DNA of 64,000 nt, taken from positions 75,952,001 to 76,016,000 of the forward strand of contig CM059432.1 in NCBI GenBank assembly GCA_030390025.1, read 5' to 3'. This stretch comes from Squalus acanthias. Its lineage: Eukaryota. Under the pieces are notes generated by a model, which saw only the letters and a program-made list of their open reading frames with translations, ran no database searches and was not told the origin of the DNA. The position numbers and the translations under genes were made by a program. Positions 3,138 to 45,058 of this stretch are shown piece by piece; the stretch's first letter is position 1; every line of letters begins with the position of its first letter.

Positions 3138-5468
3138 GTTTTTTAAAATTAATTTATGGGATGTGGGCGTCGCTGGAGAGGCCAGCATTTATTGCCAATC
3201 CCTAATTGCCCTTGAGAAGGAGGTGGTGAGCCGCCTTCTTCAACCGCTGCAGTCTGTGAGGTGAAGGTACTCCCACGATGCTGTTAGGGAGGGAGTTCCA
3301 GGATTTTGACCCAGCGATGATGAAGGATCGGCAATATACTTCTAAGTCCGCATAGTGTGTGACTTGGAGGGGAACTTGGAGGTGGTGGTGTTCCCATGCG
3401 CCTGCTGCCCTTGTCCTTCTAGGTGGAAGAGGTCGTGGGTTTGGGAGGTGCTGCCGAAGAAGCCTTGGCGAGTTGCTGCAGTGCATCGTGTAGATGGTAC
3501 ACACTGCAGCCACGGTATGCCGGTGGTGGAGGGAGTGAATGTTTAAGGTGGTGGATGGGGTGCCAATCAAGCGGGCTGCTGTGTCCTGAATGGTGTCAAG
3601 CTTCTTGAGTGTTGTTGGAGCTGCACGCATCCAGGCAAGTGGAGAGTACTCCATCACACTCCTTACTTGTGCCTTGTAGATGGTGGAAAGGCTTTGGGGA
3701 GTCAGGAGGAGAGACACTCGCTGCAGAATACCTAGCCTGTGACCTGCTCTTGTTGCCACAGTATTTATGCGGCTGGTCCAGTTAAGTTTCTGGTCAATGG
3801 TGACCCCCAGGATGTTGATGGTGAGGGATTCGGCGATGGTAATACCGTTGAATGTCAAGGGGCGGTGGTTAGACTCTCGCTTGTTGGAGATATTCATTGC
3901 CTGGCACTTGTGTGGCACGAATGTTACCTGCCACTTATCAGCCCAAGCCTGAACGTCATCCAGGTCTTGTTGCATGCGGGCATGGACTGCTTCATTATCT
4001 GAGGAGCTTTGAATGGCACTGAACACTGTGCAGTCATCAGCGAACATCCCCATTTCTGACCTTATGTTGGAGAGAAGGTCATTGATGAAGCAGCTGAAGA
4101 TGGTTGGGCCTAGGACACTGCCCTGAGGAACTCCTGCAGCGATATCCAGGGGCTGAGATGATTGACCTTCAACCACCACAACCATCTTCCTTTATGCTCG
4201 GTATGACTCCAGCCAGTGGAGAGTTTCCCCTCCCCCGATTCCCATTGACTTCAGTTTTACTAGGGCTCCTTGATGCCACACTCGGTCAAATGCTGCCTTG
4301 ATGTCTAGGGCAGTCACTCTCACCTCACCTCTGGAATTCAGCTCCTTTGTCCATGTTTGGACCAAGGCTGTAATGAGGTCGGGAGCCGAGCAGACTTGGC
4401 GGAACCCAAACTGGGCATCAGTGAGCAGGTTATTGGTGAGTAAGTGCCGCTTGATAGCACTGTCGATGACACCGTCCATCACTTTGCTGATGATTGAGAG
4501 TAGACTGATGGGGCGGTAATTGCCGGATTGGATTTGTCCTGCTTTTTGTGGACAGGACATACCTGGGCAGTTTTCCACATTGTCGGATAGATGCCAGTGT
4601 TATAGCTGTACTGGAACAGTTTGGCTAGAGGCACGGCTAGTTCTGGAGCACAAGTCTTCAGCACGATAGTCGGATGTTGTCGAGGCCCATAGCGTTTGCT
4701 GTATTCAGTGCGCTCAGCCGTTTCTTGATATCACGTAGAGTGAATCGAATTGGCTGAAGACTGGCTGCTGAGATGGTGGGGACCTCAGGAGTAGGCCGAT
4801 ATGGGTCATCCACTCGGCACTTCTGGCTGAAGATGGTTGAAAACGCTTCAGCCTTGTCTTTTGTACTCACATGCTGGGCTCCACCATCATTGAGGATGGG
4901 GATATTCATGGAGCCTCCTCCTCCAGTTAGTTGTTTAATGGTCCACCACCATTCACGATTGGATGTGGCAGGACTGCAGAGCTTTGATCTGATCCGCTGA
5001 TTGTGGGGTTGTTTAGCCCTGTCTATAACATGATGCTTCCGCTTTTTAGCATGCATGTTGTCCTGTGTTGCAGCTTCCCCAGGTTGGCACCTCATTTTTA
5101 GGTACGCCTGGTGCTGCTCCTGGCATGCTCTTCTACACTCCTTATTGAACCTGGGTTGGTCCCCTGGCTTGATGGTAATGGTAGAGTGAGGGATATGCCA
5201 GGCCATGAGGTTACAGATTGTGGTGGAATACAATTCTGCTGCTGCTGATGGCCCACGGCACCTCATGGATGCCCAGTTTTGAGCTGCTAGATCTGTTCTG
5301 AATCTATCCCATTTAGCACGGTGGTGGTGCCACACAACACGATGGAGGGTGTCCTCAGTGTGAAGACGGGACTTCGTCTGCCACAATGGTCACTGCTACC
5401 AATACTGTCATGGACAGATGCATCTGCGACAGGTAGATTGGTGAGGAAGAGGTCAAGTAGGTTTTTCA
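3138..5468 (-). mobile_element. 5'-truncated CR1-group LINE, frameshifted ORF2 (same family as 41708-44885)
   Basis: RT motifs [41 protein letters not shown] across ORFs 3202-5386; the 3' tail with AATAAA is shared with the SINE at 15477. Confidence 0.92.
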
Positions 5469-15112: not shown

Positions 15113-15476
15113 GCAGAGTTTACACCATCTAATGCGACCTTGCATATTCACAAATTTAAGGCTATAGTTAGGTTTGGCTTCTACAATCTTACAGGTTGAC
15201 TACAGTGCAGAAAGACACTATAAATTTGTTTTACCAAACATTAATGTAACTTTATACAAGTTTATTTCTTGAAAAACAATAACAGCCTTTTACTAATCAG
15301 TAACCTGAACTGTGTTCCTATCTAATATACCCTTGTCTATTGTCAATTTACAGTCTTAACAGTAGTTTACTCTTATCAAACAGCAATATACATCTACCAG
15401 AGATATTATCTGCCCAATGCACCTTTTACTTCAGGTATTTTCTTATTTAACAATAGCAGCTTCTTACAAAACAGGA

Positions 15477-15930
15477 ATGGTAATGTCACTGGGCCAGTAA
15501 TCCAGAGGCCTGGACTAATGATCCAGAGATGTGAGTTGGCTGCTGGGGAATTTAAATTCAGTTAATTAAATAAATCTGGAATTTAAAAAAAGCTAGTATC
15601 AGTAATGGTAACCATGAAACCATCGGATTGTCGTAAAAACCCATCTGGTTCACTAATGTCCTTTAGGGAAGGAAATCTGCTGTCTTACCTGGTCTGGCCT
15701 ATATGTGACTCCAGACCCACAGCAAATGTGGTTGACTCTTAACTGCCCTCTGAAATGGCCTAGCAAACCACTCAGTTGTAACTAACCGCTACGAAACAAA
15801 ATAATAAGACACGGACTGCAGCGGTTCAAGAAGACGGCTCACCACCACCTTCTCAAGGGCAACTAGGGATGGGCAATAAATGCTGGCCTTGCCAGCGACG
15901 CCCAGATCCCATAAAATGAATTAAAAAAAA
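15477..15930 (+). mobile_element. tRNA-derived SINE
   Basis: tRNA-like head (B box partly deleted in this copy), central body, LINE-derived 3' tail with AATAAA and an A-rich end. Both ends are homologous to the LINE at 41708-44885. Confidence 0.85.
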
Positions 15931-39801: not shown

Positions 39802-41707
39802 TGTCAAAAACATGCGTGGTTTTTCCATTTAAAAGCCAGTGAACCAGCTGCATGGGGCCTCCAGAGCACTGCGTGGCCACACAGTTTCGCGGCCGTGCAG
39901 CTTAAAGGGAACATTGCTTCCAGGTGTTTGTCATGTTCCCAAATTGCTACTTCAAATGTCTCTCCAAAATCAACCGTTACAAAATCATCTGCAATGCCCT
40001 CTATCCCTTGCAGTCTACCAGCTCATGCATCTTCCATTGGAAGATTTCTGGCGTTGAGCTGATCCCAATTGGCATACACTTCCAGCGGTATCGTCCAAAA
40101 GGTGTGTGGAATGTGGTTAGATATGATGATTGTTCTTTGAGACTCACGTGCCAAAACCATTGCGGACGTTGAGAATCATGAAGACTTTAGTACCTTGTAG
40201 CTAAATCTTCAATAGTCAGCAGAGGATAATACTCTCGCTTGATAGCCTTGTTTAAGTCTTTGGGATCTAAGCAGATACATAGTGTGCCGTTCTTCTTAGG
40301 TACGACTACCATCGAACTTATCCATGAGGTCAGCATTGTTACAGGAATGATGATGTCCTGTCTGGCCAGATCATCCAGGGTTTCCTTCAGCTTATCCCTT
40401 AAAACCACTGGTACTTGATATGAGACATGTTGGACTGGATCTACTGTCTTGTCGAGCCTGATTCGGTACCTCCCTCAACTTGTCCGACTTCATCACTGAA
40501 TACTCGAGGATTTTTCAGTATTAAACACTCCTTGGTTAGCGGCTTGTAGTTATTGATCACGTATACTGATATACCAGTAGAGGGTGTTATATTAATTTCA
40601 CCATTAACCGTATACTTAATGATGTTCATGCCCAGGCACGCCTTTCTACCCAGATGAGGCTGTATAGTCGTGCTATCAACGAGCTTACAATCCAGCTCAC
40701 ACCTTATGTCACCACGTTGGACCAGGATTTGTACTTTTCCTCTAATGGGGAGCCTTGAACCGCTATAAGCTACATTCTCGGTCTTAACTGGTTCGACCTT
40801 TGCTAATTTAAAATCTCTTGTTGTTTTTTGATATAGGTGAGGCGGAACCACATTACATTGTGCACCCGTGTCTATTTGAAATCTTGGGTAGTTGCCTGAC
40901 TCCTGCTTAAGTGTAATACATTGCAAATCATCCAAACCAATAGCACTGACCTCATTAATGACAAAACTTCTCCTGTCCTAGGTTCGTCATCTATTACTCT
41001 AGCTGTCTGTCTGTGTGCAGGCGATTTTTTTTTCCACAGCAAAATGGTTGGTTTTTCTGCACTTATTGCACATTATCCCAAAGACAGGGCACAGTTCTCT
41101 TTTGTGGAATTAGTTTTTCTTCCACAGTTCCAGCAGTGTCGAGTCTTTAGGGAGCCTCCAGTGTTGTCCTGAAGCTTGCATCTGTCGTGCCTTGGGGTCT
41201 CCTTGGCTTTCTGTACTGCACCCACATTCTGTCCACTTGACTCTCCAATCACTTTGAATTGCACCACCATGCTTTCAGAGGTATGACAAATCTCATCCGT
41301 CTTCAACAAGGTTAGATTAGCCTCTTGAAGCAGTCTCTCTCGCACCTTCGTATCCGCAATCCCAAACACGAGTCGGTCTCGGAGTATCTCTTCTGGCGAT
41401 ATGGAGTGGAAATCGTACCCTTCGGCAAGTTTTTGCACTGCTGTATGATATTGGCCATATGTTTCACCAGTTTCTTGCATTCTCCCGTTAACTTATATCT
41501 CTCAAAAGAAACGTTCTTGTGCGGTTGGCAGTACTGAGAGAACTTCGTCAGCACTGCCATCTTGTCTCTGTCTCCATCGTCGGACCACCAGACTTGGAGT
41601 AGACTTCACGCACTTCTTCCCTTTTCACTGTGAGAAGTGTTGCTCCCTGCATTTATTCCGTCTTCTGGTCAAGCTCCATCGCAAGAGGGTAGTTATTCCA
41701 GGTTCAC

Positions 41708-44700
41708 TTTTTTTTAATATTCGTTCCTGGGCAAGGCTAGCATTTATTGCCCATCCCTAATTGCCCTTGAGAAGGTGGTGGTGAGCCACCTTCTTGAACC
41801 GCTGCAGTGCTGGTGAAAGTACTCCCACAGTGCTGTTAGGGAGGGAGTTCCAGGATTTTGACCCAGCGACGATGAAGGAACAGTGATATATTTCCAAGTC
41901 AGGATGGTGTGTAACTTGGAGGGGAACTTGCAGGTGATGGTGTTCTCATGCGTTTGCTGCCCTTGTCCTTCTGGGTGGTACAGGTTGCGAGTTTGGGAGT
42001 TGCTGCTGAAGAGGCCTTGGCGAGTTGCTGCAGTGCATCGTGTAGATGGTACACACTGCAGCCACGGTGCGCCGGTGGTGGAGGGAGTGAATGTTTAAGG
42101 TGGTGGATGGGGTGCCAATCAAGCGGGCTGCTTTGTCCTGGATGATATCGAGCTTCTTGAGTGTTGTTAGAGCTGCACTCATCCAGGCAAGTGGGGAGTA
42201 TTCCATCACACTCCTTACTTGTGCCTTGTAAATGGTGGAAAGGCTTTGGGGAGTCAGGAGGTGAGACACTCACTGCAGAATAGCCAGCCTCTGACCTGCT
42301 CTTGTAGCCACAGTATTTATGTGGCTGGTAATGCCGTTGAATGTCATGGGGCAGTGATTAGACTCTCGCTTGTTGGAGATAGTCATTGCCTGGCACTTAT
42401 GTGGCGCGAATGTTACTTGCCACTTATCAGCCCAAGCCTGAATGTCATCCAGGTCTTGCTGTATTTGGGCATCGACTGCTTCATTATCTGAGGAGTTGCG
42501 AATGGAACTGAACACTATGCAATCATCAGCGAACATCCCCATTTCTGGCCTGATGGAGGGAAGGTCATTGATGAAGCAGCTGAAGATGGTTGGGCCTAGG
42601 ACACTGCCCTGAGGAACTCCTGCAGTGATGTCCTGGGGCTGAGATGATTGACCTCCAATAACCACAACCATCTTCCTTTGTGCTTGGTATGACTCCAGCC
42701 AGTGGAGATTTTTTCCCCTGATTCCCATTGACTTCAATTTTACTTGGGCTCCTTGATGCCACACTCAGTCAAATGCTGCCTTGATGTCAAGGGCAATCAG
42801 CTTCACCTCACCTCTGGAATTCAGCTCTTCTGTCCATGTTTGGGCCAAGGCTGTAATGAGGTCTGGAGCCAAGTGGTCCTGGCTGAACCCAAATTGAGCA
42901 TCGGTGAGCAGGTTATTGGTAAATGCCACTTGATCGCACTGTCAACGACACCTTCCATCACATTGCTGATGATTGAGAGTAGACTGATGGTGTGGTAATT
43001 GGCCGGATTGGATTTGTCCTGCTTTTTGTGGACAGGACATACCTGGGCAGTTTTCCACTTTATCGGGTAGATGCCAGTGTTGCAGCTTGGCTAGAGACGC
43101 AGCTAGTTCTGGAGTATAAGTCTTCAGCACGACAGCCGGGATGTTGTCAGGGCCCATAGCCTTTGCTGTATCCCGTGCGCTCAGCTGTTTCTTGATACCA
43201 CATGGAGTGAATCGAATTGGCTGAAGACTGGCTTCTGTGATGGTGGGGACCTCAGGAGGAGGCCGATATGGATCATCCACTCAGCACTTCTGGCTGAAGA
43301 TGGTTGCAAACGCTTCAGCCTTGTCTTTTGCACTCCCGTGCTGAGCTCCGTTATCATTGAGGATAGGGATATTCCTGGAGCCTCCTCCTCCCATTAGTTG
43401 TTTAATTGTCCACCACCATTCAGGACTAGATGTGGCAGGACTGCAGAGCTTTGATCTGATCCGTTGATTGTGGGATCACTTAGCTCTGTCTATAGCATGC
43501 TCCGTCCGCTGTTTAGCATGCATGTAGTCCTGTGTTGCAGCTTCCCCAGGTTGGCACCTCATTTTAGGTACACCTGGTGCTGCTCCTGGCATACTCTTCT
43601 GCACTCCTCATTGAACCAGGTTGGTCCCCTGGCTTGATGGTAATGGTAGAGTGAGTGATATGCCGGGCCATGAGTTTACAGATTGTGGTGAAATACAATT
43701 CTGCTGCTGCCCCACAGCACCTCATGGATGGCCAGTTTTGAGCTGCTAGATCTGTTCTGAGTCTATCCCATTTAGCACAGTGGTAGTGTCACAGAACACG
43801 ATGGAGGCTGTCCTCAGTGTGAAGATTTCGTCTCCACAAGGACTGTGCGGTGGTCACTGCTGCCAATGCTGTCTTGGATAGATGCATCTGCGACAGGTAG
43901 AATGGTGAGGACGAGATCAAGTAGGTTTTCCCCTCGTGTTGGTTCTCTCACCACCTGTCGCAGGCCCAGACTGGCAGCTATGTCCATCAGGACTCAGCTA
44001 GCTCGGTCAGTAGTGGTGCTACCGAGCCACTCTTGGTGATGAACATTGAAGTCCCCCCACCCAGAGAACATTCTGTGCCCTTGCTACTCTCAGTGCTTCT
44101 TCCAAGTGGTGTTCAACATGGAGGAGTACTGATTCATCAGCTGAGGGAGGGCGGTAGGTGGTAATCAGCAAAAGCTTTCCTTGCCCATGCTTGACCTGAA
44201 GCCATGAGACTTCATGGGGTCCGGAGTCAATTTTGAGGGCTCCCAGGACCACTCCTTCCCGACTGTGTACCACTGTGCCACCACCTCTGGTGGGTCTGTC
44301 CTGCCGGTGGCACAGTACATACCCAGGGATGGTGATGGAGGAATCTGGGACATTGACTGAAAGGTATGATTCTGTGAGTGTGACTATGTCAGGCTGTTGC
44401 TTGACTAGTCTGTGCGACAGCGCTCCCAATTTTGGCACAAGTCCTCAGATGTTTCTGAGGAGGACTTTGCAGGGTCGACTGGTGTGCCATTGTCGAGTCT
44501 GAAGCCGGTGCCGAGGTTGATGCCAGGTGGTCCATCCAGTTTTATTTTCATAGCAGTTGTGTACAACTGAGTGAAATGGCATAGCAAGCCAGAGGACAGT
44601 TAAGAGTCAACCACATTGCTGTGGGTCTGGAGTCACGTATAGGCCAGACCAGGTAAGGATGGCCAATTTCCTCCATTAAAGGACATTAGTGAACCGGATG

Positions 44701-44885
44701 GGTTTTTACGATAATCCGATAGTTTCATGGTTACCTATACTGATATTAGCTTTTTGTTCCAGATTTATTTAATTAACTGAAATTAAATTCCCCAGCTGCC
44801 ATGGTGGAGAATTGAACTCGTGTCTCCGGATCATTAGTCCAGGCCTCTGGATTACTAGTCCAGTTAAGCTAACCACTGTGCTACC
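41708..44885 (-). mobile_element. CR1-group LINE with a tRNA-derived 5' head and no ORF1; decayed APE-RT ORF
   Basis: A box TAGCACAGTGG and B-box-like GAGTTCAATTC at the 5' end; APE (QPDIVTLTESYL, TYRPP) and RT motifs; poly(A) tail at 41708-41715. Confidence 0.9.
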
Positions 44886-45058
44886 TCTTCCACTTTTCTG
44901 CAGCATTCGCGTGGTGGATATCAAGAGCTGGAATTGGTGTAGAGCATATCCAGACGCCATCGTCTACACGCTTTAGTTTAGTTATCGAGTAACTTTTAAA
45001 ACTATGTAGGTCACCGATATGTTCACTAAAAAAGTGAAAGTTGCTTTCAACAACAGTA

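Follow-up and report, generated by a model that had tools for sequence, protein, structure and literature searches.

By a working rule for eukaryotic retroelements, LINEs use RNA polymerase II (Pol II) and SINEs use RNA polymerase III (Pol III); non-LTR retrotransposons are ascribed to Pol II, and Pol III limits length, its products being usually short (PMC10886601). The TRIMp3 elements Cassandra, Helenus and Ajax (Kojima 2024, PMC10886601) are retrotransposons other than SINEs that carry a Pol III promoter derived from a small RNA, but they are non-coding LTR elements of 0.3–1.3 kb. Bov-tA and the RTE- and Vingi-derived SINEs (Kojima 2018, PMC5786205) combine a tRNA head, a LINE 5′ UTR and a LINE 3′ tail in a short element; in these, the head was added to a non-autonomous derivative, the LINE itself has no head, and the described donors are only RTE and Vingi. 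Persaeus, a SIDE of lepidopteran Zenon (Wang et al. 2019, PMC6740152), was formed by internal deletion from the 5′ and 3′ ends of its parent and is described there as having neither tRNA homology nor a Pol III promoter. Elasmobranchs also have tRNA-headed short repeats with LINE-derived tails, such as SacSINE1 (with a Deu domain and an L2-2_CM tail; PMC5499810) and HE1 (a V-SINE).

Zenon has been reported from five elasmobranch species, in all of them without ORF1 and with a poly(A) tail (Stuart et al. 2026, PMC13343379), and a whale shark preprint, in the sections available, names CR1-Zenon by abundance only (10.1101/443036). Here we analyse a Zenon copy of Squalus acanthias, in a 64-kb stretch of contig CM059432.1 that we call the window, in which, by contrast with Persaeus, the 5′ end of the LINE is itself tRNA-like. 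A preliminary description of the window, made from its letters alone, had left open whether the family was already known. The family is described, as Zenon, and its head goes unremarked: the main text of PMC13343379 contains no mention of tRNA, polymerase III or promoters, and does not remark on the head, the avoidance of T-runs or the derived short element discussed below. Our literature search found no description of a tRNA head on a shark Zenon or of a coding LINE transcribed by Pol III; repeat databases may already annotate the head.

The element at 44885–41708 and its family

The element lies on the minus strand and consists of an A box, a B box, a body of about 260 nucleotides (nt), a linker of about 80 nt, a broken APE–RT frame and an A8 tail. 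Its tRNA-like head (44808–44885), delimited from the sequence, an A/B-box scan and comparison by eye with published consensus 5′ ends, contains the two boxes that the preliminary description had read at the start of the element: a perfect match to the Pol III A-box consensus (44873–44883) and, 54 nt after it, a B box with one mismatch (44808–44818). With consensus box patterns, this pair (44883/44818) was the only one in the window, and none occurred in eight of eight dinucleotide shuffles. Between the boxes, sequence and folding gave an anticodon-type hairpin with a 5-bp stem, a 7-nt loop and AGT at the anticodon position (44847–44863), followed at the position of the variable arm by a second hairpin that is a near-copy of it (44826–44842). 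The hairpin thus stands twice in tandem (44863–44826); the consensuses of other sharks, compared by eye, have a different hairpin in second position. ARAGORN called no tRNA and Rfam gave no match in the head, a relaxed ARAGORN search of 80 loci returned noise only, and the head did not fold better than shuffled sequence (z = +0.41) despite the anticodon-type hairpin; nor did the body (z = +0.66). The head is therefore tRNA-like only by its boxes and its 5-bp/7-nt anticodon-type hairpin. Family copies begin about 6 nt further 5′ than this one, and loose contig ends fall at 44864 in four of the four sequencing runs aligned to the junction region.

Downstream of the head lies the body of the 5′ UTR (44546–44807), which blast and the consensuses identify as common to the LINE and to a short element elsewhere in the window, and which by eye is strongly conserved among shark and ray Zenon consensuses. 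In this copy it contains a 20-nt micro-inversion (44572–44591), a hairpin segment whose reverse complement matches the short element with two mismatches. The linker (44466–44545) lacks 6 nt in this copy and, read in the APE frame, encodes a basic stretch. Similarity to APE starts at 44465, at 420 nt from the 5′ end, and a single ORF2-type APE–RT frame occupies 41757–44465, followed by a short 3′ UTR and the A8 tail (41708–41756; tail at 41715–41708). In a tblastn alignment, residues 28–962 of a full-length relative (P0003) map over 44465–41814 in four frame segments with nine stops, and the copy, disabled by these frameshifts and stops, is thus dead. Pfam gave no score to its 130-amino-acid APE piece. 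A second copy of the same LINE, also on the minus strand (3139–5465), is truncated at its 5′ end inside the APE region, is 88–90% identical to the first, matches Pfam RVT_1 and ends in an A6 tail.

On sequence, the element is an elasmobranch Zenon LINE of the CR1 group. It shares with SquAca_Zenon-1/2/3 and with the CarCar, RhiTyp, ScyCan and HypSab_Zenon-1 consensuses (PMC13343379) a length of about 3.3 kb, the lack of ORF1 and the poly(A) tail; over the first 400 nt, the stretch compared, it is near-identical to the published consensuses by eye, and it stands nearest to SquAca_Zenon-1/2. Of four motifs taken from the window, three were matched exactly and one not at all, the matches being in the 5′ ends of the SquAca-1/2/3, CarCar, ScyCan and HypSab consensuses. 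The preliminary description had treated the missing ORF1 as unusual; there is indeed none here, but its absence is normal and published for Zenon (PMC13343379).

At the protein level, the nearest full-length relatives have single APE–RT frames of about 930–1,000 amino acids at no more than 42% identity, most of them on 3–5-kb contigs. In a tree of 69 rows that included two long outgroup branches and no named Zenon reference, both copies grouped with full-length single-frame relatives, in starred sets of 17 and 32 rows, apart from the CR1 elements of the window; this placement of the RT on a tree, a step that the preliminary description had proposed, is provisional. Among viral contigs no relative of the element was found, and a metagenome scan returned distant LINEs only (26–39% identity), none of which matched the head or the body by blastn.

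The head as a trait of elasmobranch Zenons

Judged by eye over the first 400 nt, the head opens seven of seven published elasmobranch Zenon consensuses (2.9–3.3 kb) from five species, four sharks and one ray, and in all seven it is followed by the body and then the linker. Both boxes are recognizable in each, the B box being shortened in two of the seven. An 11-nt head motif from the window was found in 6 of 1,003 consensus starts, all of them elasmobranch Zenons, and the whale shark consensus carries a variant of it. Over the same 400 nt the head is absent from three of three outgroup Zenon consensuses, two from hagfish and one from coelacanth, and for this reason we consider that it was probably recruited; it looks to have been acquired in the elasmobranch line before the split of sharks and rays. 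The family is abundant: Table S3 of PMC13343379, in which one cell is mangled, lists denominators that range from 59 to 2,313 among the families, which we take to be near-full-length copies, and 0–3 intact frames. An upstream stretch of one further locus (L001:390-445) resembles by eye a segment of the coelacanth Zenon consensus that lies within its first 400 nt; such a segment may be an older conserved 5′ UTR motif of Zenon that the shark lineage replaced.

The insertion site bears on whether the head and the coding part could have met by accident. To the left of the element lies an N-terminal piece of a Gypsy-type gag (44884–44937, minus strand; about residues 9–26 of its relatives), and to its right the same gag resumes at about residue 30 (41073–41703, minus strand). 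Both flanks are matched by 65 of 120 gag relatives, with about three residues of the relatives lying between the two matches; the gag is continuous across the insertion, so that the head came in together with the coding part, in a single block. Behind the LINE tail there is no remnant of a SINE tail. The interrupted element is a decayed Gypsy-type LTR retrotransposon (45060–44886 and 41707–40441, minus strand), split near the start of its gag, whose relatives carry RT, RNase H and integrase domains. No convincing target-site duplication was found at 44885–41708; a 7-nt A-rich match was rejected because it overlaps the tail.

A one-off chimera or nested insertion, in which a SINE and a truncated LINE were joined at this locus only, has precedents in the single tRNA/L1 chimeric insertions described in humans (PMC13174262), and few contigs bridge the junction here. 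In three DNA runs, from three organisms, aligned to 44200–44950, one, two and five contigs crossed the joint between APE and body, and only run X6 had contigs with at least 31 letters on both sides of it. The poor bridging and the dip in depth at the junction are in part due to the 20-nt inversion and 6-nt deletion peculiar to this copy, and we have not taken the low depth at 44486–44589 as absence of the head–APE join. Contig depth summed over the APE bins is similar in order to that over head and body, but it does not measure copy number and carries no weight here. The same join opens the published consensuses of five species, which refutes the chimera, and the gag runs continuously around the block; we give this reading almost no weight.

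Predicted proteins from other copies retain parts of the same arrangement: 2 of 29 join the body to the APE domain and 2 more join the linker to it, the remainder starting inside the APE domain or having unrelated N-termini. Upstream of 35 metagenome LINE loci, three of them in the same clade, no A/B-box pair was present, on contigs that may lack true 5′ ends. One further run (X15) was not adopted as evidence of expression, as it consists of contigs only and its status as RNA is a guess.

The preliminary description had allowed that the junction might be unique to this locus, or that full-length relatives might carry ORF1. Instead, the same join forms the 5′ end of all seven elasmobranch consensuses and recurs in independent copies, and the full-length relatives lack ORF1 (PMC13343379). 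As far as sequence comparison reaches, the head is shown to be fixed in the family, to move with the coding part as one insertion and to be absent from the outgroup Zenons examined. That the structure is real, family-wide and ancient is in our judgement close to certain.

The short element at 15474–15930

In a short element on the plus strand of the window (15474–15930), the 5′ UTR meets the final ~120 nt of the LINE at about 15809; the element ends in an A8 tail. The shared sequence is much as first described: 44864–44546 aligns with 15488–15796 at 81% identity over 324 nt (E = 3e-87), and in the LINE the APE domain starts about 80 nt after this homology, with no tail, poly(A) or ORF1 in between. 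At the other end, 41808–41730 matches 15815–15893 at 95% and, in the second copy, 3258–3139 matches 15810–15929 at 89%, so that the 3′ tail is 89–95% identical to both Zenon copies. The earlier account of a SINE built from the two ends of the LINE is therefore upheld as a 5′ UTR joined to a LINE end; the label SINE was overstated for what is at most a candidate SINE family, and the promoter boxes of this copy are damaged. Because its B box is deleted in a 14-nt gap and most of its A box is missing, the copy is predicted not to be promoter-competent. It is single in the 64-kb window, and no target-site duplication of at least 5 nt was found around it.

Which of the two elements came first is a separate matter. 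The short element is probably an internal-deletion derivative of Zenon. By eye it carries lineage-specific features of head and body that are those of the SquAca-type consensuses and not of other sharks, and these speak for an origin by deletion, as in Persaeus, rather than from an old donor SINE. Its 5′ part corresponds to the UTR and stops at the A-rich tract that ends it. Zenon is known to yield internal-deletion elements (Persaeus, PMC6740152), and two published subfamilies have linker deletions. No resemblance to the Deu, Meta or V central domains was seen by eye against bivalve alignments (PMC4824008 supplement).

The opposite polarity, compatible with either polymerase, would place first a separate and older SINE family, mobilized through the Zenon tail, from which the LINE took its head and body by template switch; present-day short elements would then descend from that donor. 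Since the outgroup Zenons have no head, the head must have had a donor, for which a SINE is the obvious candidate; moreover, Zenon tails mobilize SINEs in bivalves (PMC11481361) and the exchange of SINE modules is common (PMC5499810, PMC7245038). Set against the lineage-specific features, the stop at the UTR end, the capacity of Zenon for internal deletion and the lack of a match by eye to the Deu, Meta or V domains, this order of events seems to us unlikely, at something under one chance in three. Identity with SacSINE1 was not adopted: that element has an L2 tail and a Deu body, whereas the short element has a Zenon tail and a body that by eye resembles neither Deu nor V in the bivalve alignments, a separation, from HE1 as well, that is made by description. 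The two histories offered in the preliminary description, a SINE-headed LINE with a deletion-derived SINE and a SINE head recruited by a LINE, turn out not to exclude each other: recruitment of the head is probable, and the short element seems to have arisen afterwards by deletion.

SquAca_Zenon-2 and -3 are themselves shorter (2,886 and 3,096 nt), with linker deletions and Table S3 denominators of 396 and 294 (PMC13343379), which suggests deleted forms amplified in trans.

T-run avoidance and the case for Pol III

Runs of T are scarce on the sense strand of both Zenon copies. TTT stood at 0.49 of expectation in copy 1 (44885–41708) and 0.34 in copy 2 (5465–3139; p = 0.002 and 0.0005 against base shuffles), compared with 0.93–1.58 in seven other LINE stretches of the window and 0.72–1.37 in 34 metagenome loci, the latter being more T-rich (0.25–0.36 versus 0.21). 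The controls within the window were a CR1 ORF2 (24715–21731, minus strand), which has APE and RT domains and stays open over 994 codons, and several other CR1, L2 and RTE fragments. The window also holds two minus-strand ORFs (18033–17179 and 48768–48424) that we take to be of Penelope GIY-YIG endonuclease type by their resemblance, and one (37519–36983, minus strand) that is presumably a fragment of a Harbinger-type transposase.

At synonymous T/C sites of copy 2, T was rarer where it would complete a run of three (4 of 35 versus 131 of 328; odds ratio (OR) 0.19, p = 4e-4), and all 39 controls lay above this value (OR 0.52–2.89), one CR1 showing a weaker effect of the same kind (OR 0.52, p = 0.012). 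For the APE region of copy 1 the same test was not significant (p = 0.33); one of the two segments had been read out of frame, and the pooled figure is affected too. Across 2,213 aligned columns the two copies share no T4 run, versus nine A4, six C4 and five G4 runs. AAA is not depleted, and the deficit is therefore strand-specific. The two copies are related and do not count as independent.

In checking for Pol III terminators, as the preliminary description had proposed, we thus found TT and TTT depleted and no T4 run in common; each copy does have one internal T4 run, however, and T4 counts were not below those of dinucleotide shuffles (p = 0.23 and 0.85). Against such shuffles TTT was low in copy 2 only (p = 0.02; copy 1, p = 0.22), CCC is depleted as well (p = 0.005 and 0.015), and the RTE of the window is equally poor in T4 runs (0.44 per kb). 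The depletion of TT and TTT on the coding strand is real and fits transcription by Pol III, of which it is not proof. A T4 run stands directly before the A tail of copy 2 (3150–3139, minus strand), whereas TT is all that stands at this place in copy 1 and in the short element; the run is a possible built-in Pol III terminator.

The same family-wide structure could also be transcribed by Pol II, the head then being a captured piece of a SINE that serves as a Pol II promoter, an enhancer, a TFIIIC-bound insulator or an RNA structure, and the T-poor strand a product of base composition or of the avoidance of U-rich signals. The null result for T4 against dinucleotide shuffles and the depletion of CCC are as this reading would have them; by eye the head is more diverged between species than the body, and a tRNA-like sequence in another LINE, RTE-1_DAn, is mentioned in passing in PMC5786205. 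What it leaves less well explained is that in each of the five species the A and B boxes are recognizable at the extreme 5′ end, albeit with a shortened B box in two consensuses out of seven, and that the TT/TTT deficit is confined to one strand and is stronger than in every control. We regard Pol II as a doubtful source of the RNA, though one to which we allow a real minority share.

As regards translation, a coding RNA of 3.3 kb normally needs a cap, a point in favour of Pol II, and Pol III products are usually uncapped. In the open part of the frame there is no in-frame ATG before the APE domain except one inside the inverted segment, so that a non-AUG start or a frameshift would be needed. 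As neither head nor body folds better than shuffled sequence, we propose no RNA structure or IRES. An ATG at 44551 was rejected as a start, because the short element and the consensuses have ACG there. An ATG just after the A-rich end of the UTR, within the linker and in another frame, is kept by eye in six of the seven consensuses. A programmed frameshift site was considered and not adopted: three predicted proteins pass from the ATG frame into that of APE, each at a place of its own, and this points to indels peculiar to single copies.

The explanation we prefer, and hold somewhat above even, is a headed Zenon whose head was captured before the shark–ray split and whose whole length is transcribed by Pol III; taken by itself, Pol III transcription of Zenon we likewise put a little better than even. 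On this account the elasmobranch lineage of this ~3.3-kb LINE would have exchanged its 5′ end for a tRNA-derived A/B-box head and a body of about 260 nt; TFIIIC would bind the boxes and Pol III would transcribe the entire element, T-runs being lost from the sense strand as a result, and the RNA would terminate in a T-run located at the tail or past it. Synthesis of the protein would then depend neither on a cap nor on an AUG in frame ahead of the APE domain, but on a non-AUG start or on a frameshift from the conserved out-of-frame ATG, and the RT would recognize the 3′ end and insert the element by target-primed reverse transcription. Internal deletion would then leave 5′ UTR plus 3′ recognition tail, an element that would be SINE-like from birth because its parent LINE already has a SINE head. 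The wider proposition, of an abundant autonomous coding LINE that moved to Pol III by capturing a SINE head, purged terminators from 3.3 kb, is translated with neither cap nor in-frame AUG and generates SINEs through internal deletion, we judge evenly balanced.

If Zenon is transcribed in this way, its 3.3-kb RNA would be a naturally occurring Pol III transcript that codes for protein, and the question would arise of how such an RNA is translated independently of a cap. With an abundant family and public consensuses, the Pol III claim is directly testable. The short element would represent a one-step route to the birth of a SINE, in which the SINE 'body' is the 5′ UTR of the parent LINE, outside the RTE and Vingi clades, and current repeat annotation of sharks may be counting Zenon 5′ ends as SINEs.
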